Shown here piece after piece: positions 2,157-59,341 of a stretch of DNA of 64,000 nucleotides (positions within the stretch are counted from its first letter, which is position 1; each line of letters starts with the position of its first letter). The translations under genes and the position numbers were made by a program. Under the pieces are notes generated by a model that saw only the letters and a program-made list of their open reading frames with translations, did not search any database and had not been told where the DNA came from. Origin of the DNA: Candidatus Omnitrophota bacterium (GTDB lineage Bacteria; Omnitrophota; Omnitrophia; Omnitrophales; Aquincolibacteriaceae); assembly GCA_022711115.1 (NCBI GenBank), contig JAKLFP010000002.1, forward strand, positions 143,674 through 207,673. Reading direction: 5' to 3'.

Positions 2157-2173
2157 AGATTTCCTCTGAAAGG

Positions 2174-2416
2174 TTATCCATCAATATCCTTATGAACCCA
2201 ATGCCTTGCTTTGTTATAGGCTTTCCCGACTTTATCTTCAAGCTCAGGCGATAAAACACGCAAAAGCTCTTTGCCCATGATCCGATATTGTTTCCCGACT
2301 TTGGCCGCGCGGATCAATCCCTTTTTGATCATGCGCGTCATGGTGCTGGAACTGATTTTGAGTAATTTCTGGGATTCTTTTGGGGTATAAACTGCATTCT
2401 CTTCAATCGCTGGCAT
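2174..2416 (-). CDS. Small HTH_17 / excisionase-family DNA-binding protein
   Basis: 80 aa. The core LLKISSSTMTRMIKKGLIRAAKVGKQYRIMGKELL matches the Xis/MerR-like HTH_17 signature (...G.I.A.KVG.QYRI). ATG verified at 2416. Confidence 0.6.
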   Translation of the reverse strand: MPAIEENAVYTPKESQKLLKISSSTMTRMIKKGLIRAAKVGKQYRIMGKELLRVLSPELEDKVGKAYNKARHWVHKDIDG

Positions 2417-2540
2417 AGCATCTCCTCATCAAGTGAACTTATAAAGAAGTATAGCTATCAATTCATATTATGTCAATAGATGTCATTGATAGTCATTGGA
2501 CGCCAAAAACCACTGACAATATTGCTCTAACCTATTGAAT
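2417..2540. promoter_or_regulatory. AT-rich intergenic region with imperfect palindromic/direct repeats (tgtcaatagatgtcattgatagtcattgg). Candidate promoter/operator upstream of the HTH gene
   Basis: Repeated gtcattg units and a tcaatag...tcattga near-palindrome sit directly 5' of the minus-strand HTH gene. Confidence 0.25.
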
Positions 2541-45900: not shown

Positions 45901-46742
45901 CTAACCTACCCTGGCAAATCCGGGTATTGCCAGGGTTAGTCCACCAAGCAGCTTTTTATAATCTGAAGTTCTCTTTGCGTATCTTGATGCTCTGCCACAA
46001 ATTTCTCGTATGCCCTAGGGACTATTGAGAAGACATGGTCGAAATGGCATAAATCTTCGCCTTGGTTTTTCTGGATATATTCCCGATAAGATGAATACTC
46101 CCAGTCCGAAGGCGATGAAACTAGCCCTGCAGAACATGGATTTATATGAATGTAACGCGACAAATGCAACGCCTGAGCATCGTTGTTGACAAGAACATAT
46201 TGGAATCGCGATTCCCAAAGCGTACCTTTTCGGCGGATTTTGAGATTGAAATAGCGCGAGTAACTATGAAGTACAAGCCGCATAAAATCCGATATACCCC
46301 TTTGCGTAACCTGCGCCAAAAGCAAATGCAAATGAGTCGGCATAACGCAATAGGCAATAATTTCAATACGTTCATCACTTTGAGAATTTCTTTTATCATT
46401 TTTATCATCTAAAAGAGAAGGCCGTTGGGACTTGGAAAAAGAGGTCTTGGGATGGGCGCTTTTGTAAAACCGAAGCGTTTCAATCATCCTCAGGAATTCG
46501 TCAGGATAGCGAAATATTTCAAATCCCGCGATACTTCGAGCGAAGACGTGATAAAAACAACCCGTTACAAGCGGAACTTTCCGTTGGGGCATATTCGCGT
46601 TGTCAAAATACCTTTCTTGATTGTCAGTGGGGCTACCGACCCCTTGTCAAATCCTGGATTTGACAAAACTAAGAGTATCATAATATTGAATAAAAATCAA
46701 ATATAAATTGAAGAAAAAGCATGTCAAATCCCGGATTTGACA
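45901..46742. mobile_element. REPtron-like unit: the RAYT gene flanked by REP-like hairpins at 45901-45939 (cctggcaa...ttgccagg stem with an aatccgggta core), 46645-46665 (tgtcaaatcctggatttgaca) and 46722-46742 (tgtcaaatcccggatttgaca)
   Basis: Two perfect 21-nt palindromes differ by one base, and a third related hairpin overlaps the RAYT stop. The shared core is aaatcc(c/t)gg. Confidence 0.5.
45936..46592 (-). CDS. IS200/IS605-like HuH tyrosine (Y1) transposase of the REP-associated (RAYT) type
   Basis: HuH motif YCVMPTHLHLLL, catalytic-Tyr region LSRYIHINP. About 218 aa, with no second (TnpB) ORF. Flanked by REP-like palindromes. Confidence 0.8.
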   Translation of the reverse strand: MPQRKVPLVTGCFYHVFARSIAGFEIFRYPDEFLRMIETLRFYKSAHPKTSFSKSQRPSLLDDKNDKRNSQSDERIEIIAYCVMPTHLHLLLAQVTQRGISDFMRLVLHSYSRYFNLKIRRKGTLWESRFQYVLVNNDAQALHLSRYIHINPCSAGLVSSPSDWEYSSYREYIQKNQGEDLCHFDHVFSIVPRAYEKFVAEHQDTQRELQIIKSCLVD

Positions 46743-46777
46743 GGGTTTTCAAGGAGGAAGATAAAAACGGCAGAAAA

Positions 46778-46815
46778 AAAGAGGGGCAAGTCCCCTTCCT
46801 TGCCCCTCTTTTTGA
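46778..46815. terminator. Bidirectional rho-independent terminator immediately 3' of the giant gene
   Basis: aaaaaaa-agaggggcaag-tccccttc-cttgcccctct-ttttt is a perfect 11-bp GC-rich stem with an A-run and a T-run on either side. Confidence 0.6.
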
Positions 46816-46832
46816 TCCCCAAATTGTTTGGA

Positions 46833-49800
46833 TTACGCGGCTTTCGACGTCGCCTGGATCGTCAGGATATCGGACCAGAGCTTCGCCAAACCCGCTAATT
46901 TCATCTCATCGATGCCAAAGTACGCCTTCACCCGCTTCAGAACATCATCGCCAAGCTGACGGTTCAAAAGCGCCATGGCATCCATATTCTTGATCGATAC
47001 GTTCAGTTGTGCCGCCTTCATGGCCAAGAGACCTCTCAGACCCGCGTAGGCCTTGTTCCCTTTTTGGCTGTCAAACACCGTTCCGCTGAATTCCTTGTCT
47101 AGCATCTCCGGCATATCTTCGATCAAAAGAACCAGATGCTCTCCTCGATCCATCTCGGCAGTCAAGGCAGGATCCATCTTCCGAAGGTCACGGAAAACCT
47201 CACCCTCCGCCGTGCGGATCGCTTGGGCCGCTTGAAGCGTATTCGCAAAATTAATCGTCATACGGTTATCGATCAGCGAGCCTCGATAATCCGTCGTCTG
47301 CTGGATATTATCCCTGATATCCGCTTGGATTGCCAACTGCTCCGCTACCGAAACCTTATCGTTAACAACCAAAATACGGACAACCGCTCTGGGGTTCATT
47401 CCCAGCTGAAGTTTCAACTCATTCAGCCTCGCGGCATCGGGCAGTTCTTTCATCACGATCAGCACACCGCCAATATCGGTCGAAACAGAAATCACGGCAT
47501 TCGTCATGATCGACTTAGCAACCTCGGATTCGAGGAACTTGGTCCAATCCATTTCTCCGGTCTTGAGTGCGACCAATGTCGTCAAGGCAGTCACAACTTG
47601 TTCCACAGTCGGATTGCCAAAGGCAGGCACTACGATTTTCGCGACCACATCATTCAGAGTATCTGTTCCATACTTAAAAGGTTCACTTTCCAATTTTCTC
47701 AGGATTTCCGGTGCTAGCAGCCTCCTGACCTGATCAACCAATTCCTGGCGGACTTCGATCTCCAACTTGATCACCGGCAATTGAGGCCCCGCCTCCCTCA
47801 CCTCGGAGCGGGTCAATCGCCCCTTCAGTGCTAATTTAACAGCTTCGATAGTTCCAGGTCGCTGGCTCCGATCAGTTTCAGCTTTTAGGATACTATCTTC
47901 AAGAGCATTCATGCTGTTCGCAAAAAAGTCATTCCTCGTTTCCAACACGGCCATATGATGCAAGCTAGGGTATGATCCAGTCCTGATGGCAAAAGCGTCC
48001 AACCAATGCATGACATCTTCCTCACGAGTTTGGATCGTGTCAGCCGCAGCTATCGTTATTTCCCATGCGCTGACCACGCGATCAATGGTCTGCATTATGT
48101 TCGCAGATAATTTCCCCCTCACCTCGGAGCGGGCAGGACTGCGATATACAGTTTCTCCGCGCAATGTAATTTGCGCCGGTAACATTAAACCATCCGTTGT
48201 TTCTATCCGTAATTTGGAAAATTTTCCGCCAATATCTCGAAAGGGCACATGCCTGGCTTCGTCAAGATCAGTGACGAGTATACGCATCATTTTCCCTACC
48301 GATTTTCCTTTAGCATCAAGGGCCGTGACAAACATAACACTCCCTGCATTTAAACCATTTTGACGGATCGGATTAAGATTCAGTCGAACAAGATCTTTGG
48401 CATTGATCGGCTGATCTAGCCGCAGGGTGTATTCTCTTGCCTGCGTTGTTTTTCCATCCACGTGTCCAGTTATGATTTGGGTACCTAAGCCTATCACATG
48501 GAATTGACTCATTCTTACTTCGGAACGAGGCCCTCCTAAAAATCCTTCTGCCCCTCCTCCTCCGATGTCCGGCGTAAAGTCATATCGGCCTTGTTTCACA
48601 TTGATGGTTGCCGATTCAGGGCCTGTTAACGTAAATGAAAAGGTTCTCGCTTCGTGCACATTGATCCCCTGAACATTATTGATGTCAATCGTGTAATTCT
48701 GAGGCGTGTTCAAAACTCCAGTCAAATTAGCACGCCAGGTCTTCCCTTCGGCATCTTGAATCTCATAGCCGACAACGGGAGCGTTTGTACTCCCTAAGGA
48801 AAAGGTGATCCCATTGGGAAACTGCGTCGGGAGATCCACATTATTGGTGTAATTTGCAAAAACACCCCCAAAACTCGCCGTATTTTCTCCCACATAATTG
48901 AATGTGAATGTGTTCGTCTCCGTAACCTTGAGCTCCCCAACCACATTCGTACTGCTCACAAAATTACCCAACCCAACAAATGGCAATGGCGTGACGCTGG
49001 CAGTTTGATTCCCAGGCGGAACATCGGGAGCAAAATTCCAAGAACCCATGACTAGATCAGCGTTCTTAGGACCTTGCCCTTCAAAAACATAGACCATCTG
49101 ACGGACCTGCGTCGGATCAATCTTACGAGCCATTTGGTCCAAAGGCAGCGTGTATTTTTGCGAGCTGGGAGTAATACCGCTTAAAATGCCTGTCCAAGTA
49201 TTCGTATTGGCATCTTTAACCTCGACCTTCAAATGATCCAGATTGGGACTCGCAATCGAAAAGGTTAATCCGTTCGGATAAAGACTTTGAAAGTTAATAT
49301 TATTGGTATATTCAAACACCGTTCCCGCATAACCGGTAGCATTCGTGCTCGAGTAACTCATGCTCATGGTGTTTGTCCCGGTAATATTATTGAAAACCAC
49401 TTCACCTCCTGGCCCTGTGAAATTCATCGGATTAACTTGCGGCAGCGGTGTAATGGCAGCACCCTGATTGCCAGGAGGAATCGAGGGAACATAATCCCAA
49501 GATCCTAAAACAAGATCCGCGCTCTTGGGACCTTGCCCTTCAAAAACATAGACCACCTGCCTCACCTGAGTCGGATCAATCTTTTGTTGAAGGAGGTTGA
49601 GCGACAGCGTGTATTTTTGTAAACCCGGAGTGATGCCGCCAAGCATCCCTCTCCAAGTGTTGGTATTCGCATCTTTGACCTCCACTTTCAAGTGATTCAG
49701 ATTGGGGCTTGCGATCGAAAACGTCAGACCATTCGGATAAAGACTTTGAAAGTTAATGTTATTGGTATATTCAAACACAGTGCCCGCATATCCCGTAAAA

Positions 49801-52800
49801 TTCGTACTCGTATAACTCGCAGTCAGCGTATTGGTGCCCGTGATATCATTGAAAACCGATTCACCAGTCGGACCTGTAAAGGTCGTCGGATTCACTTGCG
49901 GCAGCGGCGTGATGGCAGTACTTTGATTTCCGGGCGGAATGATAGGAACGTAATCATAAGGACCAAGCTCAATCACATAGGTCTTCTGCCCTTCTCCTGC
50001 GGCGGTGAACACAATCTCCCGGATCTTGGTCGTATCGATCCCGTATATCTGATTCAAATTCACCGTGTATTTCTGAGGCGTCTCGGTAATGTCGCTAACA
50101 TTGCCACGCCAAGATCTTCCGTTCTCATCCTTGATCTCGAGAACCAACGAAGTGGCATCCAAACTGCCTACCGAAAAGGTAAGTCCATTCGGGAATTGAC
50201 TCGCAAAATCCACGTTATTGGTGAAACTTGAAAAAACACCCCCGAAGCTCGCGACATTGATACCGCTGTAACTCAAACGAAGAGCATTGGTCCTGATCAC
50301 CGTAACATCGGCAACCGTGTTCGTGCTGTCGGTGTAACTTCCCGTATTATTATTGACAGGCAACGGCGTGATCAAAGCACCCTGATTGGCTGCGGGCAAA
50401 ATCGGAGGAACATAGCTGTAGGGTCCAAGTTCGATCACATAGGTCTTCTGCCCTTCCCCTACCGCAGTGAAAACGATCTCTCGGATCTTAGTCGTATCGA
50501 TCCCGAATATTTGATTCAAGTTGACCGTATGCTTTTGAGCAGTCGCGCTAATACCGCTGATATTCCCACGCCAAACGTTCCCGTTCTCATCCTTGATCTC
50601 AATGCCCAAAATCGTCGCATTCGTGCTGGAAACTGAAAAGGTAAGACCATTGGGAAATGCGCTTGCAAAATCGACGCTATTAGTAAAACTTGAGTAAACC
50701 CCTCCATAACTATCCGCACTCGGTCCCGCATAATTCAGCATCACAACATTGGTGTTTTGCGCTGTGGCCAGAACCGATGCGTTCGTGCTATTAAAAGTAC
50801 CGAAGTTATTAAACGGCAAAGGGGTGATGTTGGCCGCTTGATTCCCAGGCGGAATATCGGGAATAAAATTCCAAGAGCCCATGACAAGATCGGCACTCTT
50901 CGGGCCTTGCCCTTCAAAAACATAGACCATCTGACGGACCTGCGTCGGATCAATCTTCCGAGCTATTTGGTCCAAAGGCAGCGTGTACTTTTGCTGATCC
51001 GGCGTGATGCTGCTAAGCATGCCAGTCCAGGTGTTGGTATTGGCATCCTTAACCTCGACTTTTAAATGATCCAGATTGGGACTGGCAATCGAAAAGGTCA
51101 GACCATTCGGGTAGAGATTCTGAAAGTTGATATTATTCGTGTATTCAAACACTGTCCCCGCATAACCGGTGGCATTCGTGCTCGCATAACTCATGCTCAG
51201 GGTATTGGTCCCAGTCACATTATTGGTAACTACCTCGCCTGTTGGTCCTGTAAAAGTGGTGGGATTGACCGTTGGAAGCGGTGTAATGTCCGCGGTTTGA
51301 TTGCCGGGAGGAATCGACGGAATATAGTTAAAATTTCCCCAATCCACATAGAGCGTTTTCTGTCCCTGACCTTCGATCACAAGCGTGATTTCCGTGATAT
51401 GCGTCTGATCAAGCGCTGGAGCATATTGCGTCATAAAACTGAGCGGAATATTAAAGCCTTTTCCTGAAGGCGTCAGATTGGATAGATATGCCGCAAAAAC
51501 ATTACCTCTCCCGTCCTTGAACTCAATCTTCACCCTTGAAAGATTGGGACTCGCTGCGAAGAGTCTCAAACCAGTCGGATAATTGGTCACCAAATTGATG
51601 GGGTTGTCTGCAAAATTGAATGCGGGACCCGCATAACTGGCAGTTCTGGCGCCGTTGACATTCACGGTCAAAAAGTTTTGCTCGTTTACCGTGTTCGTGA
51701 TCGTCGTACCGTCGTTGGAGTCAAAACTCCATAAATTCTGAACGGTCGGAAGCGGAGTCGCGGCTTTCTTCACGGCGCGGTAAACCTGCATGGGATTCAG
51801 CGAGAAATTTTGAATGAAATCAAGCGGCTGACCGGGTAAAACGAATTGATTGGTAACCAAAGTTCTCCACGGGCCGTTCACCTGCGCTGCGGCTTGAAGA
51901 TCAATGGCTCCAGGGCTGTAAGGCGCTTCCACGCGTACAGTTCCATTTTCACTAATAGACATCTGAGGCGGCATGAGCCCAGCCTCTGCGGCGTTTGTCA
52001 TTGTCACAGGCGCTTGGGATATTCCTACCACACTCATCAAACCAAACATAAGGGTCCGCAAAAGCGACGGCCTCATACTTCTGACAAACTGCTCTTGCGG
52101 CTGCGCCATCTCTTGACCCCTCATCTCCGAACGCATGCGGCTCCGAATAGCTTCATCAAGCGCGCGCAATGCGGGCTCATCTATTAGACCAAATTCAACT
52201 AATTTTTCCTCCACTTGCCTGCTTGCGTTCGCCAGTGCGAGGGCATTCCGCACGGCCCTCGTCGGATCAATTTTGAAAGCTACAACATCCGCCACTGTTT
52301 CGAGAGCCCAATCCGACTCGTCTCCCTGCACCCATTGCAAAAATTTCTCGATACCCGCATCAACCGCCCCCCTCACTTCGGATCGGGAGGCAACAGCGGT
52401 TTTGACCGCATCGACAAGTTGAACACCTGAAAAGGGCTTTGACAAAAATCCAACACTGGATTGTGCTACTGCTTTTCCTTCCACTGCGCTCAACCCTTCT
52501 GTCCCACCGCTCATCACAAGTGCCGCAATCGAATTGTTTTTAGCCCGGGCAGCTTCGACAATAACACTTTTTATAACCCCATCGCTTTTTTGAAAGGTAT
52601 CCTGACCATGCAGGATCCTGTCCGTGACCAGTACGTCAAAATCGTTTTCACTGATGGCTTGACGAGCGCCGTCAACCGTATCTGCGAATATCACGATCGC
52701 CCCTTCGCTCTCAAGTATTGCTTTTACTACTTCAAGAATCATGGGCTCATCATCAACAGCAAGAATCCGTTTTCCCGCAAGATTGATATCCGTAGGCAGA

Positions 52801-55800
52801 ACCGCCCTCACCTCGGAGCGGGTGGATTCGTCATATCCCTCAAGACGGATGTGGAGAGGCGATTGCCATTGCATCGTGGGGGTACTTGAACCAGTCCAGG
52901 AATTATATTGGGAAATTTTGTTGATATGCCCCTTGGGGTCTATCTCAAGCAGATAAAGCTGGTCCCCTAGCCGCTGGGGCGCTGTGTCCCTGAAACGTGC
53001 CAATTTAACAGAGAACTTTCCGCCTTCCCAGGAAATCCGACCTACGATCAGCATACCGCGCCAACCGAAATGCAATATACCGCCAAGCGGCTTGGACAGA
53101 ACCAAATCCTGACCCCAAAGACCTCGTAATAGCGTAAACCATGGCCTTGTAATCATCCTGAAACCGAAATCGACCCCACGAGAAATCGGCGCTAACAGAC
53201 GAAAGCCAGAAACACTTGTTAATGAACGAAGCAATTTGTTATCAGCCTCTGGATCTCTTCCATTCCCTACAAGCATCGGCGATAGCGGACGTCCTGTGGC
53301 ATCGAGATTGTCTGTCGCTTTCAAAAAGGCTCTCTGCAGACGCTGATAAATTTCATAACTTGGCATGGCACGTCCATAAGCCAACCACACCAGAAAAGTC
53401 AAAAAGATAAAATCATGCCGCTTGAGATAAATGACCTGGTTGTTCGCGGTAACCAAAAATGCCCGGCTTGATTCGCTCAAACGTCCGGCAATGCTCTGAA
53501 TCGTCTGTCTGGGAACGACGCTTTCATCATTCGCAAGCGCGTCTTTTTCCAGTTGTTGGATAAACGGCCTCCAATTTTCCTGATCCGTTGCCAGCATTTC
53601 GATTGCCGTGTCGATATTAGACCTCACCTCGGAACGGGCGGATTCGTCGCGTTTCATTCGTTCTTGTCTGGCTATGAACCACTTCCCAAAATAGTAGAGG
53701 CTGGTGCCCGCTAAAATTGCCGCCGGAACCACCATAGCCCCACGAATGATCCTGCCGAGTGAAGCAAAATTTATGACCGCACGATCCGATAGTGAAGCCT
53801 TGCCTTGCGGAGGTCTGACATTCACAACATCACGAATGAATGCCGTTGCGGCAGGATATCCGGGCTTACTGAACGGAAAAGTCGTCAGCCCTTTTAATAC
53901 AAAATCAATTTGGCCGCGTGTATTTCTTTGATGCTCATCCCATGCCATCACAAGGATCATGGCCCGCATGACTGTGAATTCCGATTCGGGGTGCACGGTC
54001 ACGCGGGTTGCGCCGCCGGTCCGTACCAGCCGCGTCCCACTGATCATTCCAATCCGTGTCGGAATGCCCCCGGCTCCGACCACTTCGGCTCTTTCCAAAT
54101 CGCTTTGATTGATAATAAAATCCCGGGAAATGAGACTTCCGAAGATTCGCGCATTCCAGAGACTGATGAGCCACAAGGCCCTCTGGTCCATCTCCGAAAA
54201 ATTTCTCACGGCCGGGTATTTAGCCAGAAATTCCGATTTTTTCTGAGCCCAGAGATTGTTGATATGCCCATTGACTGTCTGGACACGTTCTACCGGTGTC
54301 TTTTCCTCAAAATAGGTCCAGGCATGAAAGCGCTGATACTTTCGAGCGTCATCGATCCACTGATTCACTGACGGATAGGCCTTCCCAAGCCGGTATTCCT
54401 GAAATTGAGGAAAACCTTGCGCCTTGAGCGCGGCAGCACCTGCCGACTGCACAGGTCCTTGTGTTCTGGGAGCCTCCCCTGCTTCCACGGTTAAAGCACT
54501 TGCCAAAAGACCCAAACTGGCGGCAAAAAAAGTACGTCGCGTCACGGGCTGAAGTATTTCACGTTCTGACACTCTCAGTTCGGATCGCAAATTTTCTCTC
54601 GTCTCTCGAGCGCTTTCAATCAACGTCCCAAGTCTTTGGAACTCACTCGGCATGTTCAACGAAACGCCTGGCTGGGCCCGCAATCTTTCCGCAGCGGTTA
54701 TCATGGCTGCTAATTGCCCGTCTGCCTCTGCATCAACTGTTCCGCTTTGGACACGATCCTGTAATGCCCAAAATTGGCGTTCCAATTTTTTCACATCATC
54801 CGGCGTCGCCCTCAATTCGGCACGGGCCGCCCCAGAAGAAGAAAAGCCTAAACGACGTTCAAAGAAAGCGCGAGCTGCCCCTGCATAGTCGCGAAACTCC
54901 GGTCTACCGCTTGCCGGTTGATACGGAATTTCGGAAACTCGAAGTTCGTTTCGTCTTGTCGAATCCGCATGGGCAACCACAAGACTTGCGCCCAAGGCCA
55001 TCGCATCATATAAATGCGTCACATGAAACGCCTGCATTTCCTGACCCGGCTTAAAAAGCTGAGGAAAACTGACGACGAGACCGGAAACTGCCTGACCCTT
55101 TTGATCAACCGCCCTTGATTCCGCACGGAGTTCGATCGCTTTTATTCTGCCTGTTGCTTTCAGTTTATCGATCAGTGTGTTAATATCGGCAATGTCAAGC
55201 GTCCGCAGTTCCGAGCGGCCGGTAGATGTTCCTATGAAAGGGCGAAAACCGTTAACCCTCTCCCCAAGCGCCCAGCGAAACTGTTTGACAATGAACGCCG
55301 GAACCGCCGCTTGATACAGATGGATCATGTTTAACATTTCACCAAGAAAATATCGCAGTCTCTTGCCCCGTAATTCCGAGCGGCCGGTCGTTGCGCCAGT
55401 CTTTTCAATCTTCATTTCTCTCAGAGAACTGTCATTAGCATCATTCACAACTATCGTTTCACGCCCACTCCTGATAAACATTTCTTGAACATTAGCGGGC
55501 AAATCCTGCATCGTCAGACTAGATGCCGGTAAGTCCATCTTGGTTACTGGCGCGTTCGGCGTCGTGCCCCCCGCAACATTCACAGCCATCTTTGTGCCAG
55601 CCGTCGTATTCGTAGAGCTGAGCCGTGCAAGCGCCGGAGAATTCGTCGAAAAGATGAAAACACCACCATCTCCTTTATTTAAATAATATCCGGACCGAGC
55701 CTCCCAATTCATCAGATTATGTGTCTCTTCCGTTCTTACACCATTTATGGCAACCTCAAACGTTGTCGCCATCCGTCCATTCGGTAGTTGGAACAAATTC

Positions 55801-57983
55801 GGTGACATCGTGCCTGCATTCCCTTGCGCTCGCGCCACGTTGAGTGACAACGCCAAACCCATCAACGCTAACCCTATCTTCTGCCACCAATTCGATCGCA
55901 GCTCAGAACGACCTGCTAATGCCGGAGCCGGAGTTTTAGCCGCTGTCTCGACGAGCGCCAATGATGGTACTGCAATGGATGTTGCTCTGGAAGCCGGCGC
56001 AGTCGCATTCACAATCGTCGCTTTTTCTCCCATGACCGCAGATTGACTTGTTGCGGTCGCGGTACGAATCATGGCGGTCGTGCCTTGCTGAACGGCTATA
56101 TCCCATGTCTTGGTACTATCATTAAATACAAGCGTTCGAGTTCCCGTTTTACCATCTACCACGTACGTCATCGACCCTCCGCGCGTGGTCATGATCGGTA
56201 CTGCGCCTTTATCCGCCATATATCGGAAATTCTGATCCATAGTTGCGGTCGTTGTGATATCAGCCGCTGCGTCCAAGGCCGCGCTGACCACGAGTCGAAG
56301 CGTTTTAGAGCCGTCCTTGCCCATCGGATCTCCAGTCATCGTGACAGCATTTTCAATGGTCGCAATGTCAAAACGGGTCTTGGTGCGCTGTAACATGGTA
56401 TCGCGGTAAAGCTTCTCATCACTTTTTTCGCTGAGACGCGGCGTGACGATCCCGTAGCTGATGTCATGATCGCGGAAGATCTCGCTCAAACCGTCCGTGT
56501 GATAACCCCCGGTAATCAGAACCGCTTTGCCGATATTTTCTTCTGAAAGTTTTTTTTGGATTTGCACAAAAAAGGCATCTTCACGTTTCCTCGCGAGATC
56601 ATAGAAATCAATGCCGCTTGTGAAAAGTTCGGACATGCGTTTGGAAAAATCGGGCGGCATGACTTTCTGTTTCATAAGCGATTCGTCATTTTTGGAGACG
56701 GCCACCGCCTCCGTCAAACGCCCGACCATGGACTCGATGGTGAGGATCTTTTGTTTGTCCTGCACTTTGCGCGATTCCGTGCGGTTGAGTTCCAGGTGCA
56801 GCAGTTTGCGGAGGAGTTCGCCATCCCGATAAAGTTCGAGAAGATTCTTCTGCGCGGGCTCCTTGGCCAAGGTATCAAGCATTTTAGCGAAAAGGAATTC
56901 GATCTCTTCAAAAAGAGCTTTCGGATCCAGTTCATTTTTGAGGACCACATAACCGGCATAAAGACTGAAATTCGGATAATCGCTGAACTTGAATCCTCTG
57001 GGTCCGGCTTCCGCCGCCAGTTGTTCCAGAACCCATCGGGGCAATATTTCTTTCGCATCCTTACCCGTACCGGCCCTGCCCATACTGATATTGCCTTCCT
57101 GAAAATTTTCGATGGCCCGGACAAGTGCCTCCGAAGTTCTTTTTTCGCGAAGAAACTTCACGAGGGAATCCCGTTCGGCCAGCGCCTTGTTCCGCTCCAC
57201 GTCTTTTTCCATTGTCTGAATAACAAGAAGACGCGTGATTTGCGGCCAACCGACCTGGGCGAACAGGCTTTCCAGGTCCACGTTCAGAACCTTCTTCGCT
57301 TGTTTGACAAGCGATTTTACATAGGGCAAAAATTCGCGCCGCCCCATCTCAAAGCTTTTCCAATCCGCGATAAGCCCGCGTGTATCCGGTGTAAACGTTT
57401 TGGACGCAACTTGCTCCAGCCTCACGTCGAAAACTCGAAAGAATTTTTCCACATCCGTTTCGGCCCCAAAGACTTTCTTCAAGGCGTTGTAATTTTGTTT
57501 ATAGAGGGAAGCATTTTCGATACCGATCGCCTCCACTTCCGGCGGTGCCTCCAGCAAATAAAGTTCGGCACCCGTCAATTCGCCCTGTTTTGCCAGATTA
57601 TCGGAAAGCTTCAGATTGCGTTCCTTGTCCGGGAAAAGACGGAGATAATCCGCATTCAGTTTTTCAGAAGCGCCTTCCACGAACACGGTTTTGATCGCGT
57701 ATTTTTTGTTCAGGTATTCCAGGAGCTGCTTGATCTTGATTTGCGCCTGATAATTGGCGTGGGCATTCTGAATGTGAAGCACAAATTTCGGATCTTGTTT
57801 GACTGGCGCCTCATAAATTTCATCGATGCTTGCAAGGTCCGCAGGAATATCAAGGCTCAGAAAATTAGGGATTTCCCGAGGGTTGGCTATTTCGATGCGA
57901 GCGCCCGGATCTGCCCATGTGCACTGCGTGGTCAAAAAACAAACTACTGTTATTATCGCGACCACTTTTAAATACTTTTTCAT
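46833..57983 (-). CDS. Giant modular protein (3716 aa) of unknown function. It has an N-terminal signal peptide and an embedded CheY-like receiver domain. About 7 tandem 150-aa beta-sandwich repeats are present. At least 13 RSE[LV]R junction motifs occur, and internal Sec/Tat-like hydrophobic segments follow some of them
   Basis: An uninterrupted 11.15-kb frame. ATG at 57983 is preceded by a GGGGG Shine-Dalgarno. The signal peptide is MKKYLKVVAIITVVCFLTTQCTWA. The receiver domain is RILAVDDEPMILEVVKAIL...VLVTDRILHG...LSKPF. See findings for the repeats and motif. Confidence 0.8.
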   Translation of the reverse strand: MKKYLKVVAIITVVCFLTTQCTWADPGARIEIANPREIPNFLSLDIPADLASIDEIYEAPVKQDPKFVLHIQNAHANYQAQIKIKQLLEYLNKKYAIKTVFVEGASEKLNADYLRLFPDKERNLKLSDNLAKQGELTGAELYLLEAPPEVEAIGIENASLYKQNYNALKKVFGAETDVEKFFRVFDVRLEQVASKTFTPDTRGLIADWKSFEMGRREFLPYVKSLVKQAKKVLNVDLESLFAQVGWPQITRLLVIQTMEKDVERNKALAERDSLVKFLREKRTSEALVRAIENFQEGNISMGRAGTGKDAKEILPRWVLEQLAAEAGPRGFKFSDYPNFSLYAGYVVLKNELDPKALFEEIEFLFAKMLDTLAKEPAQKNLLELYRDGELLRKLLHLELNRTESRKVQDKQKILTIESMVGRLTEAVAVSKNDESLMKQKVMPPDFSKRMSELFTSGIDFYDLARKREDAFFVQIQKKLSEENIGKAVLITGGYHTDGLSEIFRDHDISYGIVTPRLSEKSDEKLYRDTMLQRTKTRFDIATIENAVTMTGDPMGKDGSKTLRLVVSAALDAAADITTTATMDQNFRYMADKGAVPIMTTRGGSMTYVVDGKTGTRTLVFNDSTKTWDIAVQQGTTAMIRTATATSQSAVMGEKATIVNATAPASRATSIAVPSLALVETAAKTPAPALAGRSELRSNWWQKIGLALMGLALSLNVARAQGNAGTMSPNLFQLPNGRMATTFEVAINGVRTEETHNLMNWEARSGYYLNKGDGGVFIFSTNSPALARLSSTNTTAGTKMAVNVAGGTTPNAPVTKMDLPASSLTMQDLPANVQEMFIRSGRETIVVNDANDSSLREMKIEKTGATTGRSELRGKRLRYFLGEMLNMIHLYQAAVPAFIVKQFRWALGERVNGFRPFIGTSTGRSELRTLDIADINTLIDKLKATGRIKAIELRAESRAVDQKGQAVSGLVVSFPQLFKPGQEMQAFHVTHLYDAMALGASLVVAHADSTRRNELRVSEIPYQPASGRPEFRDYAGAARAFFERRLGFSSSGAARAELRATPDDVKKLERQFWALQDRVQSGTVDAEADGQLAAMITAAERLRAQPGVSLNMPSEFQRLGTLIESARETRENLRSELRVSEREILQPVTRRTFFAASLGLLASALTVEAGEAPRTQGPVQSAGAAALKAQGFPQFQEYRLGKAYPSVNQWIDDARKYQRFHAWTYFEEKTPVERVQTVNGHINNLWAQKKSEFLAKYPAVRNFSEMDQRALWLISLWNARIFGSLISRDFIINQSDLERAEVVGAGGIPTRIGMISGTRLVRTGGATRVTVHPESEFTVMRAMILVMAWDEHQRNTRGQIDFVLKGLTTFPFSKPGYPAATAFIRDVVNVRPPQGKASLSDRAVINFASLGRIIRGAMVVPAAILAGTSLYYFGKWFIARQERMKRDESARSEVRSNIDTAIEMLATDQENWRPFIQQLEKDALANDESVVPRQTIQSIAGRLSESSRAFLVTANNQVIYLKRHDFIFLTFLVWLAYGRAMPSYEIYQRLQRAFLKATDNLDATGRPLSPMLVGNGRDPEADNKLLRSLTSVSGFRLLAPISRGVDFGFRMITRPWFTLLRGLWGQDLVLSKPLGGILHFGWRGMLIVGRISWEGGKFSVKLARFRDTAPQRLGDQLYLLEIDPKGHINKISQYNSWTGSSTPTMQWQSPLHIRLEGYDESTRSEVRAVLPTDINLAGKRILAVDDEPMILEVVKAILESEGAIVIFADTVDGARQAISENDFDVLVTDRILHGQDTFQKSDGVIKSVIVEAARAKNNSIAALVMSGGTEGLSAVEGKAVAQSSVGFLSKPFSGVQLVDAVKTAVASRSEVRGAVDAGIEKFLQWVQGDESDWALETVADVVAFKIDPTRAVRNALALANASRQVEEKLVEFGLIDEPALRALDEAIRSRMRSEMRGQEMAQPQEQFVRSMRPSLLRTLMFGLMSVVGISQAPVTMTNAAEAGLMPPQMSISENGTVRVEAPYSPGAIDLQAAAQVNGPWRTLVTNQFVLPGQPLDFIQNFSLNPMQVYRAVKKAATPLPTVQNLWSFDSNDGTTITNTVNEQNFLTVNVNGARTASYAGPAFNFADNPINLVTNYPTGLRLFAASPNLSRVKIEFKDGRGNVFAAYLSNLTPSGKGFNIPLSFMTQYAPALDQTHITEITLVIEGQGQKTLYVDWGNFNYIPSIPPGNQTADITPLPTVNPTTFTGPTGEVVTNNVTGTNTLSMSYASTNATGYAGTVFEYTNNINFQNLYPNGLTFSIASPNLDHLKVEVKDANTNTWTGMLSSITPDQQKYTLPLDQIARKIDPTQVRQMVYVFEGQGPKSADLVMGSWNFIPDIPPGNQAANITPLPFNNFGTFNSTNASVLATAQNTNVVMLNYAGPSADSYGGVYSSFTNSVDFASAFPNGLTFSVSSTNATILGIEIKDENGNVWRGNISGISATAQKHTVNLNQIFGIDTTKIREIVFTAVGEGQKTYVIELGPYSYVPPILPAANQGALITPLPVNNNTGSYTDSTNTVADVTVIRTNALRLSYSGINVASFGGVFSSFTNNVDFASQFPNGLTFSVGSLDATSLVLEIKDENGRSWRGNVSDITETPQKYTVNLNQIYGIDTTKIREIVFTAAGEGQKTYVIELGPYDYVPIIPPGNQSTAITPLPQVNPTTFTGPTGESVFNDITGTNTLTASYTSTNFTGYAGTVFEYTNNINFQSLYPNGLTFSIASPNLNHLKVEVKDANTNTWRGMLGGITPGLQKYTLSLNLLQQKIDPTQVRQVVYVFEGQGPKSADLVLGSWDYVPSIPPGNQGAAITPLPQVNPMNFTGPGGEVVFNNITGTNTMSMSYSSTNATGYAGTVFEYTNNINFQSLYPNGLTFSIASPNLDHLKVEVKDANTNTWTGILSGITPSSQKYTLPLDQMARKIDPTQVRQMVYVFEGQGPKNADLVMGSWNFAPDVPPGNQTASVTPLPFVGLGNFVSSTNVVGELKVTETNTFTFNYVGENTASFGGVFANYTNNVDLPTQFPNGITFSLGSTNAPVVGYEIQDAEGKTWRANLTGVLNTPQNYTIDINNVQGINVHEARTFSFTLTGPESATINVKQGRYDFTPDIGGGGAEGFLGGPRSEVRMSQFHVIGLGTQIITGHVDGKTTQAREYTLRLDQPINAKDLVRLNLNPIRQNGLNAGSVMFVTALDAKGKSVGKMMRILVTDLDEARHVPFRDIGGKFSKLRIETTDGLMLPAQITLRGETVYRSPARSEVRGKLSANIMQTIDRVVSAWEITIAAADTIQTREEDVMHWLDAFAIRTGSYPSLHHMAVLETRNDFFANSMNALEDSILKAETDRSQRPGTIEAVKLALKGRLTRSEVREAGPQLPVIKLEIEVRQELVDQVRRLLAPEILRKLESEPFKYGTDTLNDVVAKIVVPAFGNPTVEQVVTALTTLVALKTGEMDWTKFLESEVAKSIMTNAVISVSTDIGGVLIVMKELPDAARLNELKLQLGMNPRAVVRILVVNDKVSVAEQLAIQADIRDNIQQTTDYRGSLIDNRMTINFANTLQAAQAIRTAEGEVFRDLRKMDPALTAEMDRGEHLVLLIEDMPEMLDKEFSGTVFDSQKGNKAYAGLRGLLAMKAAQLNVSIKNMDAMALLNRQLGDDVLKRVKAYFGIDEMKLAGLAKLWSDILTIQATSKAA
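48540..51950. repeat. About 7 tandem coding repeats of about 456 bp (152 aa) inside the giant gene, in two alternating sequence subtypes
   Basis: Units begin ...IPPGNQ.A.ITPLP and end ...(F/Y)(I/V)P. Subtype 1 carries TFTGPTGE...KVEVKDANTNTW; subtype 2 carries IKDENG..WRGN. Several units are at least 85-90% identical at protein level. The antisense frames repeat as well (MIQIGACDRKRQTIRIK... at 49692 and MIQIGTGNRKGQTIRVE... at 51066). Confidence 0.8.
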
Positions 57984-58178
57984 TACACCCCCCTTTGCGG
58001 TGTCTTTGAGAAACTCTTTTTAAGACTATATTAAAACTATTTAAAGAGTAACACCTTTTTGACAATTTTCAAGGGACAATGATTAACATTCTTCCTAATA
58101 CAACATCTATCAAAATAAAATATTTAAGGTCTATATTCATTCTAGATAATGACTCTAAATTGTTACAGATCCTGGATT

Positions 58179-58910
58179 TCAAGTTTTTTCAACAAAACGG
58201 ACAGCCAGACCTAATTGTTCCTTTCGAACTTCCTTGCGGCATATCTCCCCTGAAATTTGATATTCTTCCGGAAAGTTTGCGCTCGGAAATATATGGATCT
58301 CAACCTTAAGGCCCTCGATAGGATTCAACGCATCAATCCTATGAGAAACCCCAAGGTCAAGATATTCCCCGAAAAGCCCCCCCTCACTGATATTTGTCGC
58401 AATGGCGGTGGTTTGGATCATTTCTCCGCTTGCGGTAAATATCTTTAATTCCAGCGGAACCGCAACGTGCATGCGGTGGCTCCGCCGCTGTTCTAGCTGA
58501 TAGCCAAGCGACTCCTGGGGGGTTTTAACACCCTTGGCCATAATCTTCTTGTCGGGATCCTTAACGAAAAGAAAGGGCCCAAAAGATTCGGCCACCTGCT
58601 TCTCATCCGAGCAGATATCCACTTTCCCCGAGGGAAAGTTATCCTCGATACAGTGGGCCATTTCTGGCGTCACCCCGTAAAGCACGCTATGCTTGGGACG
58701 GATGCAAACCGTCAAAAGACGTCGCATCCCTATCGCATCCAGAGGACCCGACTCTTGGAAGTTTAGGATAATCTGCTGCAAGCCGTAGCGCCGGATGTTT
58801 TTCTGAATCTTCCAGGCTACCTCCTGCACCGATTCAAAGGTCGGCATGCCCTTGAGATCAAAAACCGAAACCCCGCCGATTTCTCGCGTTGAATAATGGA
58901 ATTTAGTCAT
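58179..58910 (-). CDS. STAS (anti-sigma-antagonist-like) - PilZ fusion protein; putative c-di-GMP receptor. ATG at 58910; the track start at 58997 is GTG
   Basis: N-terminal STAS-like fold (MTKFHYSTREIGGVSVFDLKG...). C-terminal PilZ motifs QRRSHRMHV (RxxxR) and NISEGGL (D/NxSxGG). Confidence 0.6.
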   Translation of the reverse strand: MTKFHYSTREIGGVSVFDLKGMPTFESVQEVAWKIQKNIRRYGLQQIILNFQESGPLDAIGMRRLLTVCIRPKHSVLYGVTPEMAHCIEDNFPSGKVDICSDEKQVAESFGPFLFVKDPDKKIMAKGVKTPQESLGYQLEQRRSHRMHVAVPLELKIFTASGEMIQTTAIATNISEGGLFGEYLDLGVSHRIDALNPIEGLKVEIHIFPSANFPEEYQISGEICRKEVRKEQLGLAVRFVEKT

Positions 58911-59341
58911 AACGCATCTTCCTCTTTTTGAACCGTTCGACCCTCCAAAGAATTCGGTGGATTCTGGGATAGATGTACCCTGAAAGAATATCTCCACGCT
59001 GGATGACGTAGGCCAATTGAGGACCCCCTTTCCCGTTCATTTTCATACTGCGAAAATCTTGAAGATCATGTGTCATTTTCATCACTCCTCTTTTTCAAAT
59101 TGTCCATAATATCATTTAACAACTTTTACTATGTTCTAACAAAAACATAACTCAGTAAAATACTTTTGTCAATATGTTATATATATAAAATATTTAATTA
59201 TATATTTTATTAATATTTATAAATATATATATCAAAAACAAGCAAATACATAACAAAAATGAGCCAAATTGACTCACTCTAAAAAACTTAAATCACTACC
59301 TTGGAAAGTCCTTGCCGGAGGCAAGAAGATTTTTAGAAGAT

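Follow-up and report, generated by a model that had tools for sequence, protein, structure and literature searches.

The window, a 64,000-nucleotide stretch of DNA from a Candidatus Omnitrophota MAG, contains an open reading frame of 3716 codons plus a stop (46833..57983; this and all features below lie on the minus strand), in DNA with a GC content of 47%. The ATG start is preceded, at a distance of 4 nucleotides, by a GGGGGG run resembling a Shine-Dalgarno sequence (57988..57993). Residues 1–24 (57912..57983; MKKYLK, VVAIITVVCFLTT and QCTWA) resemble a Sec signal; the N-terminus, MKKYLKVVAIITVVCFLTTQCTWA, reads as a putative signal, is modelled as a helix and has hydrophobic counterparts in relatives. 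Between 10 and 65 nucleotides 3' of the stop codon, an intrinsic terminator hairpin (46768..46822) with a 15-base-pair stem, an A-run upstream and a U-run downstream has a free energy of −29.6 kcal/mol (z = −4.55). An earlier, sequence-only reading had claimed a real, long modular frame with a credible ATG and G-rich Shine-Dalgarno sequence, a secretion-type N-terminus and a strong terminator, and all of this is borne out. A near-identical protein, HOW58948.1, carries the NCBI name "response regulator" and the label Candidatus Omnitrophota.

Residues 25–640 (56064..57911) form a conserved N-domain, with a predicted alpha/beta core of the TIKI/TraB/ChaN/Ere type. The core, which contains the parallel beta-sheet characteristic of that superfamily, is made up of residues ~50–155 and ~485–515; it is split by an all-helical insert of ~320 residues and extended by a small beta-rich tail subdomain. 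His75, Glu103, Arg467 and His495 are invariant in 44 family sequences. The 28-residue spacing between His75 and Glu103 is that of His85 and Glu113 in Bcr135 and of His3902 and Glu3930 in RRSP (PMC6254334), the equivalence of residues being drawn from spacing and motif context, not from structural superposition. The nearest kin of the N-domain is the TIKI/TraB-PrgY-GumN/ChaN/erythromycin-esterase superfamily, which includes the RRSP endopeptidase of MARTX toxins and the HopBA1 effector. With these it appears to share the His-Glu spacing, a C-terminal histidine in a G-x-x-H context and an arginine, but it differs in lacking sequence-profile similarity, in the helical insert and in having Asn73 at the position of Glu3900, the first glutamate of the 2His/2Glu set of RRSP. 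By its predicted fold and the His-Glu...His arrangement, we place the N-domain in this hydrolase superfamily; it is hydrolase-like, with a putative role as a peptidase, an esterase or a simple binding domain. This replaces the former description of the N-terminal ~640 residues as uncharacterised. Pfam yielded no match for the N-domain of the window protein at E ≤ 0.1 (TraB_PrgY_gumN, Erythro_esteras and Cofac_haem_bdg included) nor for that of 33 relatives at E ≤ 1, an N-domain profile found nothing among PDB sequences, and two metagenome scans returned no relative closer than 62% across the full N-domain.

The interior starts with a Thr/Ala-rich linker (residues 641–691; 55911..56063), disordered in the model (pLDDT below 50 over residues 643–696), and a first copy of the pentapeptide RSELR (residues 692–696; 55896..55910). 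Thirteen cassettes follow, each ending in a version of this peptide. Residues 697–872 (55368..55895) have a Sec-signal-like start, SNWWQK-IGLALMGLALSL-NVARA/QG, and end in RSELR. The next, numbered cassette 3 (residues 873–927; 55203..55367), measures 55 residues including its RSELR and is flanked by direct copies of the 15-mer ACCGGCCGCTCGGAA. Four short cassettes (residues 928–1015, 1016–1031, 1032–1058 and 1059–1137; together 54573..55202) end in RNELR, RPEFR, RAELR and RSELR, respectively. A cassette with a Tat-like start, TRRTFFAASLGLLASALTV, and a hydrophobic segment at residues ~1406–1430 (residues 1138–1454; 53622..54572), an orphan sequence (residues 1455–1726; 52806..53621) and a CheY-like receiver (residues 1727–1871; 52371..52805) all close with RSEVR, while residues 1872–1955 (52119..52370) close with RSEMR. 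The cassette of residues 1956–3157 (48513..52118) opens with the signal-like LLRTLMFGLMSVVGI and continues with a leader of ~100 residues and seven repeats of 153 residues (residues 2072–3141; 48561–51770); it ends in RSEVR, as do the two cassettes after it (residues 3158–3289 and 3290–3396; 47796..48512). The linker, the receiver, about seven tandem repeats and the separation of modules by a conserved peptide had all been noticed before and are found here in this form.

The receiver is matched by PF00072 (E = 8e-11; 42.5 bits against a cutoff of 30.2) and by NCBIfam response-regulator models. Inspection by eye shows its DD, D, S and K residues to be preserved, in VDDEP, VTD, MSGG and SKPF. 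With 145 of the 3716 residues, and as one of 13 interior cassettes, it does not organise the protein; searches at E ≤ 1e-4 or 1e-6 matched it to no family protein, and the interiors of the orthologues lack it. The module-by-module search with profile models that had been recommended, made with Pfam and NCBIfam on ten segments of the protein, recovered Response_reg alone; these libraries show no link to adhesins, RTX, NRPS/PKS or Rhs proteins, in line with the initial judgement. Among the repeats, protein identity ranges from 29% to 88% and nucleotide identity reaches 83% at most. Single repeat units have no Pfam match, and the whole repeat cassette has none in Pfam, PDB sequences or the protein database (residues 1956–2529 in the protein search). 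Nothing was retrieved by a protein-database search with residues 3158–3716, nor by a HMMER search of 1.84 billion representatives with residues 697–1726. These protein-library results apply to proteins of ordinary length only, because the libraries missed the query's own protein and any family member longer than 1125 residues.

The last ~560 residues, in which no motif had been recognised, consist of the two small cassettes described above and a family-wide conserved C-domain (residues 3397–3716; 46836..47795), an alpha/beta module ending in ...SKAA. It is supported by BLAST, iterated HMM searches and the P0001 model: BLAST matches fall on the extreme C-termini of orthologues and the iterated HMM recovers 50 family sequences. 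Foldseek gave nothing significant for the C-domain model.

A frame of this size might be a pseudogene, be open by chance or stem from chimeric assembly. The cassette interiors that lack homologues in two protein-database searches and in the 1.84-billion-sequence library would fit such an origin, as would the variable copy number of one cassette among assemblies. Against it stand 3716 stop-free codons at this GC content, the in-frame conservation of both caps and, as described below, a syntenic slot kept in at least 17 species. Contigs from two JGI metagenomes, assembled independently, contain the identical 11,151-nucleotide gene; in an NCBI/ENA MAG it is found with one extra, tandem copy of the 165-nucleotide cassette 3. 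A chimeric or accidental origin is scarcely credible. As the cassette is duplicated in the sister MAG, its copy number is either polymorphic or collapsed in short-read assemblies; a collapse artefact is possible for cassette 3, but unlikely for the seven 153-residue repeats, given their limited nucleotide identity.

The gene is a member of an undescribed, Omnitrophota-specific family of "capped cassette" proteins. More than 250 relatives were found, with positional orthologues in many species, and the named source records of N-domain relatives are all Omnitrophota or Omnitrophica MAGs, except for one partial protein labelled Verrucomicrobiae. The chromosomal slot, between pheST-rarA and aroQ, is conserved in at least 17 species (flanks were checked in 18 loci). 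Complete syntenic orthologues encode 1575–3684 residues and one contig-cut copy more than 3932, compared with 3716 in the window; as 16 relatives continue past the edge of the 10-kb flank at more than 3500 residues, the greatest length seen in the family is a lower bound. Every member has a signal-like start followed by the ~600-residue N-domain with intact His-Glu...Arg...His, and complete members mostly end in the ~310-residue alpha/beta C-domain with a terminal -SA or -AA. Between these caps lie from none to more than 13 unrelated modules, each closed by R-[S/A]-E-x-R in a flexible linker. Minimal members of ~1000 residues keep the presumed catalytic residues, with the motif mostly absent; in them, no membrane segment separates the C-domain from the exported N-domain to which it is fused. 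The recurrent neighbours are housekeeping genes and a STAS/PilZ protein; no conserved neighbouring protease was found, and a scan of 2.9 million viral contigs turned up no relatives.

The modules evolve as units. At a shared chromosomal position, orthologues have differing, unrelated interiors, 205 of 300 interior cassettes are without a BLAST partner, and 23% of the ends of interior homology blocks fall within 5 residues of the motif, against 3.5% at random. Beside exported modules, relatives have cassettes for ATP- and SAM-dependent enzymes, with matches to PfkB, APH, methyltransferases, radical SAM, UDPGP, Response_reg and ART-PolyVal.

The delimiter peptide is the most interesting element of the protein; the sequence-only reading noticed it and left it uninterpreted. 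In the window protein it takes the form R-[SNPA]-E-[LVMF]-R, with variable codons, and occurs 14 times (as R[SA]ExR, 14 or, strictly, 13). Of the 14 occurrences of R[SA]E[LVMI]R in a six-frame translation of the 64-kb window, 12 are in the frame of the gene and two on the opposite strand. In 80 family proteins there are 338 instances of R[SA]ExR, where composition predicts about nine, and other long reading frames of the same loci have zero. The number of motifs scales with protein length (r = 0.80) and the first lies just past the N-domain, at a median of residue 668. The residues flanking the motif show no conservation, with an abundance of Ala, Ser, Pro, Gly and Glu; in both predicted models (the N-terminal part of the window protein and P0001), the motif is located in low-confidence, disordered stretches. 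A literature search for RSEVR, RSELR and RSEMR returned unrelated text only.

Residue x is genome-specific. Two motifs have the same x with a probability of 0.13 when they come from different genomes, compared with 0.30 inside one protein and 0.31 among paralogues of a genome (permutation p = 0.0005). All are Ser in three CAZDVO paralogues and Lys or Arg in both DAOPYQ paralogues; single entries have Ser in nine of nine motifs (L013), seven Lys and two Arg (L004) or six Ala (L002).

The DNA of the motif is also biased: its first Arg is encoded by CGY in 81% of cases, against a background of 42%, and Ser by TCC in 51% and AGY in only 6%. The motif could then be the translated footprint of a DNA junction, such as a microhomology or recombinase site for cassette shuffling, without a role in the protein. 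Besides the codon bias, this would account for homology blocks that stop at motifs and for the sole difference in the gene between the sister strain and the window, the 165-nucleotide duplication, whose crossover lies inside the motif-coding 15-mer ACCGGCCGCTCGGAA common to two motifs. However, the R, S/A, E and R are kept in all 338 instances among proteins whose N-domains are only 32%–62% identical, a distance over which a neutral footprint would have decayed, while synonymous positions and the codon for x vary (0.3–0.55 bit at third positions). Moreover, x switches genome-wide (from V or M to S, K or A) in non-homologous cassettes, which points to selection on the peptide, and 15 nucleotides explain slippage between adjacent motifs but not the gain of unrelated modules. 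We regard a pure DNA footprint as improbable; as a secondary property of the motif, a role as DNA junction is compatible with the polyprotein reading discussed below.

Two translational roles were considered. The codons for RSEVR contain GAGGTGAGG, which resembles a Shine-Dalgarno sequence, but those for RSELR and RSEMR do not, and this possibility was rejected. The codon for x is often ATG or GTG (119 of the 219 motifs with a hydrophobic x, R[SA]E[LVMI]R), and several products read from x begin with Met-Arg and then a typical signal peptide, as if the gene were an operon without stops, its modules translated separately from internal starts. Such an arrangement is very hard to reconcile with the many genomes in which x is Ser, Ala, Thr or Lys and cannot initiate, on which ground it was rejected; no purine-rich element is conserved at Shine-Dalgarno distance (0.17 bit or less at −15 to −1), and ribosomes that had started upstream would continue across the motif.

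Sec- and Tat-like signals tend to follow the motif directly. Hydrophobic segments starting 0–20 residues after a motif number 25, with 5.9 expected, and those ending within 20 residues before a motif number one, with 5.1 expected. The post-motif stretches are short, with a median of 14 residues, and some delimiters are followed by textbook Tat motifs (SRRSFLKLLGAAAG, NRRQFLGIF and, in the window, TRRTFFAASLG). Tat twin-arginine signals work at a free N-terminus. A signal-like segment follows about 7%–12% of the motifs only.

The gene product may be a single, uncleaved, membrane-threaded multi-domain chain, in which the hydrophobic stretches act as signal-anchor and stop-transfer sequences and blocks lie alternately inside and outside. 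R[SA]ExR could then be a non-cleaved linker: a docking site for a partner, possibly the protein's own C-domain, a hinge or a modification site. The four internal hydrophobic segments of the window protein, at residues ~703, ~1155, ~1412 and ~1978, give a consistent topology, with the N-domain outside, the receiver inside and the repeats and C-domain outside, and both caps end up on one side of the membrane, as in the minimal members. A genome-specific x would suit any co-evolving binding partner, not a protease alone. A 2026 survey of Omnitrophota giant proteins leans towards architectures anchored in the inner membrane, their regulatory and metabolic domains facing the cytoplasm (10.64898/2026.06.07.730766). 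Such a chain is less easily squared with hydrophobic stretches that are short, confined to the downstream side of the motif, never immediately before it, and in several cases canonical twin-arginine signals. With both caps outside it predicts even numbers of segments. Odd numbers were the commoner among those complete members in which any hydrophobic segment was counted, but the predictor was crude and missed the segments of the window protein itself, so that the count is too coarse to tell a threaded chain from a cleaved one. Overall, we consider the threaded chain less likely than not, and the main rival of the polyprotein reading.

The explanation we prefer, at somewhat below an even chance, is that the gene product is a polyprotein processed at R[SA]ExR; starting from a conserved linear motif at module boundaries, every further step towards cleavage is one that we infer. 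In its favour we count the statistics and context of the motif, the genome-specific x, the signals behind motifs, the invariant N-domain residues, the modularity and the occurrence of ATP- and SAM-dependent enzymes beside exported modules. The motif would be a recognition site for a protein that co-evolves with it, and such a reader would explain why x is shared by paralogues of one genome and differs between genomes. Most likely, this reader would be an endopeptidase, and the precursor would be split into individual products. Modules with Sec or Tat signals might then be exported, with the receiver, and in relatives the kinases, methyltransferases and radical-SAM enzymes, staying in the cytoplasm. 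The N-domain, related to the TIKI and RRSP endopeptidases, would be one candidate for the protease, a trans-acting enzyme being equally possible. As its signal peptide should take it out of the cytoplasm, it would be an awkward protease for linkers beside cytoplasmic-type modules, and the retention of the presumed catalytic residues by minimal members, most of them devoid of the motif, suggests that it has another primary role. The gene would work as an operon in one reading frame, its content easily reshuffled at the motif-coding junctions. The complete scheme, in which R[SA]ExR is a processing signal by which up to a dozen or more proteins are cut and sorted to the cytoplasm, Sec or Tat, the protease co-evolves and the 15-nucleotide junction doubles as a recombination handle, is put forward tentatively.

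Further points speak against a polyprotein: the C-domain would be left without a signal of its own after cleavage, the threaded topology built on the four hydrophobic segments of the window protein is coherent with no cleavage at all, and the share of motifs followed by a signal-like segment is small.

The phylum is known for giant mosaic proteins, among them the "Archaeovorin" and "Dockerin-type" proteins (West-Roberts et al. 2023, bioRxiv 10.1101/2023.11.21.568195) and a catalogue of proteins of at least 10,000 residues (Nielsen & Lui 2026, bioRxiv 10.64898/2026.06.07.730766), so the earlier remark on the rarity of giant genes in bacteria makes this one seem odder than it is. The giants share with the window protein one reading frame that tiles unrelated domains (receivers, methyltransferases, radical SAM, kinases), mostly unique sequences and the usual presence of signal peptides or transmembrane segments; post-translational cleavage has been proposed for the giants, with no cleavage points known, and authors state that they are unable to say whether, or where, the products are cut. 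At 3716 residues, the window protein is far below the size cut-offs of these studies (more than 30,000 residues in West-Roberts et al., at least 10,000 in Nielsen & Lui), and Pfam and NCBIfam find in it none of the giants' hallmarks: C39/S8 peptidase, SecA-DEAD, dockerin, TSP3, glycosyltransferase and NUDIX. The cassettes of relatives likewise hold scattered enzymes and none of these hallmark domains. The texts of the two papers do not mention SELR, polyprotein or linker, and their accessible parts contain no description of a TIKI-like N-cap or a C-cap ending in -SA or -AA.

Other systems offer partial parallels. In MARTX toxins, conserved N- and C-regions also surround variable effector cassettes, which recombination exchanges and which are set free by cuts in the inter-cassette linkers. 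The window protein differs in having no RTX repeats, cysteine protease domain or type I secretion signal (by Pfam and NCBIfam) and an N-terminal Sec-type signal instead, in its delimiter, a defined pentapeptide and not a Leu-X site, and in being encoded by a core syntenic gene among housekeeping genes; this comparison draws in part on the abstract of PMC6254334. The polyvalent proteins of phages and conjugative elements combine many unrelated enzymatic domains in one polypeptide, and their autoproteolytic processing has been discussed (Iyer et al. 2017, PMC5512222); a cassette of one relative matches their ART-PolyVal ADP-ribosyltransferase family. Unlike the present family, polyvalent proteins have no common delimiter motif or end caps, and the gene described here is chromosomal, not on a mobile element. 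In multi-core RiPP precursors, such as the cyanobactin PatE, and in viral polyproteins, repeated short recognition sequences flank variable cassettes and direct a protease. The likeness is an analogy only: the present cassettes span 50–1200 residues and are whole domains or proteins, not cores of 6–8, no cognate protease was found and there is no viral context.

Omnitrophota are ultra-small and probably predatory or parasitic, and their giant genes, repeatedly reported since 2022, are still unexplained. That this phylum makes giant mosaic proteins with receiver, methyltransferase and similar domains is already known; the novelty seems to lie in the family architecture, with a hydrolase-like head, variable cassettes ended by R[SA]ExR and a conserved C-domain. 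The window protein is a tractable, mid-sized example of 3.7 thousand residues, with two conserved caps and a five-residue delimiter at every module boundary, and its locus provides direct evidence of module gain at the delimiter. R[SA]ExR may mark where such giant proteins are cut; were it a cleavage site, the family would represent a polyprotein strategy that is bacterial and chromosomal, with module shuffling built in, and the database name "response regulator" of the near-identical protein would be corrected. Should the motif also punctuate the proteins of 10,000–147,000 residues of the phylum, the missing "cleavage points" would be at hand, along with an explanation of how genes of this kind can be functional.

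The giant gene runs on the minus strand from 57983 to 46833, where an ORF search of the window returned one open reading frame with an ATG and 3716 codons. A GGGGGG run lies 4 nt upstream of the ATG, so direct reading bears out the single stop-free frame, its start and its G-run, as the sequence-only reading had them. The amino-terminus, MKKYLKVVAIITVVCFLTTQCTWA, resembles a Sec signal, in line with the Sec-type export proposed before. The stop codon is followed, 10 to 65 nt on, by a 15-bp hairpin between an A-run and a U-run (ΔG −29.6 kcal/mol; z = −4.55 versus shuffles); the earlier description of a strong bidirectional terminator holds as far as the hairpin, the two runs and the free energy are concerned. 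The same 11,151-nt gene is present, identical, on contigs from two JGI metagenomes, and the ENA/NCBI metagenome-assembled genome (MAG) GCA_035390585.1 contains it with one additional cassette. An assembly chimera, against which the earlier reading had cautioned, is therefore excluded for practical purposes. A 471-aa open frame at 56556–57971 (+), antisense to the coding region of the N-domain, is probably a shadow ORF of the giant gene.

In a scan with one genome per GTDB species, relatives of the N-domain (residues 25–640) were found to be encoded at 252 loci, of which 79, frequently several from one genome, were fetched. The homologous 560–640 or so residues form the amino-terminus of the ORF in all 79. 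The taxonomic range, which the sequence-only reading had left to homology searches, is narrow: relatives of the amino-terminal 696 residues that carry a named taxon all come from Omnitrophota MAGs, except for one partial protein labelled Verrucomicrobiae. The near-identical HOW58948.1 is named "response regulator [Candidatus Omnitrophota bacterium]" at NCBI. Family members range from 923 to over 3900 aa, the upper end being a lower bound, as 16 ORFs are already longer than 3500 aa where they leave the 10-kb flank. Complete ORFs nearly all end in -SA or -AA. The last 320 residues of the window protein match the extreme carboxy-termini of eight close relatives by BLAST, and an iterated profile places a C-domain core of about 235 residues at the very carboxy-terminus of 50 family sequences, including "minimal" members of about 1000 aa. 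The carboxy-terminal 560 or so residues, previously described as lacking a known motif, thus contain a family-wide conserved end of 320 residues. In the minimal member P0001 (1014 aa), a disordered linker with RAETR at residue 691 joins an N-domain to a C-domain; the window protein is this plan with about 2700 residues inserted between its first and last motif. Some family genes seem split by a stop or frameshift (L035:13066–21615 (+), L063 and L079:15112–21654 (+)); the L035 protein, P0003, has the abnormal ending ...WRFKIV, and behind it, in a different frame, lies an ORF exceeding 2850 aa that contains motifs. Pseudogenisation, sequencing error or recoding may account for such cases.

The amino-terminal 640 or so residues, called uncharacterised in the sequence-only reading, can now be assigned a fold. 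An AlphaFold model based on an alignment of 44 sequences (pLDDT 79, pTM 0.75) and the family alignment, in which His75, Glu103, Arg467 and His495 are invariant, indicate that the N-domain has the fold of the TIKI/RRSP superfamily and probably its catalytic apparatus as well. The 28-residue spacing between His75 and Glu103 equals that of the catalytic His-Glu pairs of Bcr135 (H85/E113) and RRSP (H3902/E3930) (PMC6254334), and His495 is part of a GGxH motif resembling the second catalytic histidine. We limit the assignment to the same fold rather than to membership of a curated family, because sequence profiles (Pfam, also with 33 relatives, and a PDB-sequence profile search) did not detect a relationship to TIKI-type families and because a helical insert of about 320 residues interrupts the core. 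The C-domain is a three-layer alpha/beta structure, for which a structure search returned generic neighbours only.

Between these two domains, the conserved peptide noticed earlier as a module separator is confirmed: the window protein contains 14 copies of R-[SNPA]-E-[LVMF]-R with varying codons, starting at residues 692, 868, 923, 1011, 1027, 1054, 1133, 1450, 1722, 1867, 1951, 3153, 3285 and 3392. A six-frame translation of the 64-kb window contains R[SA]E[LVMI]R 14 times, 12 in the giant-gene frame and two on the opposite strand. A de novo search of long members without the hydrophobic version yielded RSESR, R[SA]EKR and RSETR, which generalises the motif to R[SA]ExR. In 80 family proteins (170 kaa) it was counted 338 times, where composition predicts about nine, and its count correlates with protein length (r = 0.80). 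The first motif is located just past the N-domain (median residue 668, with just four motifs within the first 500 residues) and the last, in many members, 300–320 residues from the carboxy-terminus. Other long ORFs in the same loci lack it, namely glutamate synthase and two ORFs of 3233 aa (L073:231–9929 (+)) and 2323 aa (L079:490–7458 (+)); the latter two, which served as negative controls, adjoin family genes and have different carboxy-terminal endings. The flanks are unconserved and linker-like, and in both models, of the window N-domain and of P0001, the motif is predicted to be in unstructured, low-confidence stretches. As judged from the sequences, R[SA]ExR delimits modules throughout the family, as a linear motif under strong selection at every boundary. 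Its codons are unevenly chosen: CGY encodes the first Arg 81% of the time (background 42%), TCC accounts for 51% of the Ser codons and AGY for just 6% (background 33%), and among 219 motifs of the R[SA]E[LVMI]R form 119 have ATG or GTG at x. Common ancestry, selection on nucleotide microhomology or a signal in the RNA may lie behind this bias.

Two of the modules named in the sequence-only reading are equally real. The CheY-like receiver scores 42.5 bits against PF00072 (cutoff 30.2), and by eye its cassette (residues 1727–1871) retains the DD, D, S and K residues. The tandem repeats, estimated at about seven, number seven units of 153 residues (residues 2072–3141), with protein identities of 29–88% and DNA identities of at most 83%.

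The gene is surrounded by housekeeping genes: upstream are pheS, pheT, rarA and a STAS/PilZ protein, downstream an IS200-like gene, DUF1844, an LPG-synthase-like protein, aroQ and accB/accC. Positional orthologues exist in at least 17 species, in the common order pheS-pheT-rarA-STAS/PilZ-[gene]-DUF1844-LPG synthase-aroQ, with flanking proteins 57–94% identical. Completely sampled orthologues measure 1575, 1825, 2008, 2228, 2306, 2407, 2878, 3097, 3482, 3665 and 3684 aa, next to 3716 aa in the window and more than 3932 aa in one cut by its contig end; their interiors are unrelated. The gene directly upstream (58179–58997 (−)) encodes a protein of about 243–272 aa with a PilZ domain (PF07238) and an amino-terminal half that looks STAS-like by eye; of 18 syntenic loci checked, 16 have it in the same upstream position next to the family gene, and a functional link, for instance via c-di-GMP, would be conceivable. 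Two perfect 19-nt palindromes, GTCAAATCC[T/C]GGATTTGAC, at 46646–46664 and 46723–46741 (0.05 expected by chance), separate the giant-gene terminator from an IS200/Y1-transposase-like ORF (45936–46592 (−), PF01797). They resemble hairpin termini or REP-like sites belonging to that element, and one also scores as terminator-like. Among the fetched loci, other same-strand neighbours recur: by eye, one cluster of 28 loci resembles a UvrD/PcrA-type helicase, and further clusters, of about 15–24 loci each, resemble GcvT, GcvH, GcvP and lipoate-protein ligase, which would point to one or more additional paralogue lineages with conserved synteny in the core genome.

Turnover of the interior is modular. 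BLAST comparison within the family leaves 205 of the 300 interior cassettes that measure 50 aa or more without a relative in other member proteins; for the window cassettes, no relatives were detected in protein libraries, from which long proteins appear to be missing. When 149 cassettes of relatives were run against Pfam, only scattered PfkB, APH, methyltransferase, radical SAM, UDPGP, Response_reg, ART-PolyVal, TPR, WD40 and DUF218 domains turned up. Interior homology begins and ends at motifs: 23% of homology-block ends (n = 109) fall within 5 aa of one, versus 3.5% at random, and 57% within 20 aa, versus 13%. In pairwise comparisons entire cassettes are inserted, deleted, duplicated or moved; by this sequence evidence, cassettes are the units of evolution. 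The sister MAG provides the clearest example: over 11 kb its gene matches that of the window at every nucleotide, apart from a tandemly duplicated segment of 165 nt, corresponding to cassette 3 (residues 873–927), of which the window has one copy (55203–55367 (−)) and the sister locus two in tandem (L100:3617–3946). The junction copy carries the 3' half of motif 2, placing the crossover inside the 15-mer ACCGGCCGCTCGGAA (T-G-R-S-E) that motifs 2 and 3 have in common. Either the strains genuinely differ in copy number, or short reads collapsed the repeat in the window assembly. A purely DNA-level role for the motif is contradicted by a peptide conserved while its codons vary and seems highly improbable; it is compatible as a secondary property.

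The variable residue x follows the genome. The probability that two motifs have the same x is 0.31 between paralogues of one genome and 0.30 within one protein, versus 0.13 between genomes (permutation p = 0.0005); x is nearly always Ser in three paralogues of one MAG and Lys or Arg in two paralogues of another. The cassettes bearing genome-typical motifs are non-homologous to each other, which argues for selection by a putative genome-wide reader of the peptide, not simple copying. An internal translation start at x is contradicted by the lineages in which x is S, A, T or K.

Export signals are asymmetrically placed around the motif. Using a simple hydropathy window, 25 hydrophobic stretches start within 20 aa after a motif, versus 5.9 expected (median 14 aa, the length of a signal peptide), and one ends just before a motif, versus 5.1 expected. 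The former appear to include canonical Sec-type leaders, and three twin-arginine motifs follow motifs: SRRSFLKLLGAAAG, NRRQFLGIF and, behind motif 7 of the window protein, TRRTFFAASLGLLASALTV. Window cassettes 2 (residues 697–872), 8 (1138–1454) and 12 (1956–3157) open with a signal-like stretch; such a stretch is absent from the start of the receiver cassette and of several others. The main rival to cleavage holds that the chain stays intact and is threaded through the membrane; the four hydrophobic segments of the window protein would give it a self-consistent topology, with the receiver inside and the caps and repeats outside; a crude and unreliable family-wide parity test does not favour it, and we regard it as rather unlikely.

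Giant mosaic proteins are documented in Omnitrophota, and the accessible text of those papers speculates on proteolytic processing and states that the cleavage points are unknown. The window protein shares their phylum and mosaic style, but is smaller and has none of their hallmark domains. In that text we found no mention of a TIKI-like cap, an -SA/-AA cap or an R[SA]ExR delimiter, and a full-text literature search for three motif strings did not turn up the delimiter either. The closest functional analogues include MARTX toxins and polyvalent proteins (PMC5512222). Membership of the former is excluded because the window protein has no RTX repeats or CPD (Pfam, NCBIfam), consistent with the earlier view that it is not an RTX protein, and of the latter because the gene has a chromosomal core location and no relatives were found in 2.9 million viral contigs.

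The family thus combines a cap-cassette-cap plan, a motif at every boundary, a genome-level x and modular turnover with recombination at a motif-coding junction. We tentatively propose, at somewhat less than even chances, a polyprotein cut at the motif. R[SA]ExR would be read by a protein, and an endopeptidase cutting there would be the simplest reader, because of the asymmetric export signals and because one frame mixes ATP- and SAM-dependent enzymes with modules that are exported. A candidate for the protease is the N-domain, by its TIKI/RRSP-superfamily fold; since it has its own signal peptide and is conserved in motif-less members, another enzyme may do the cutting. The released modules would then each follow their own targeting information.
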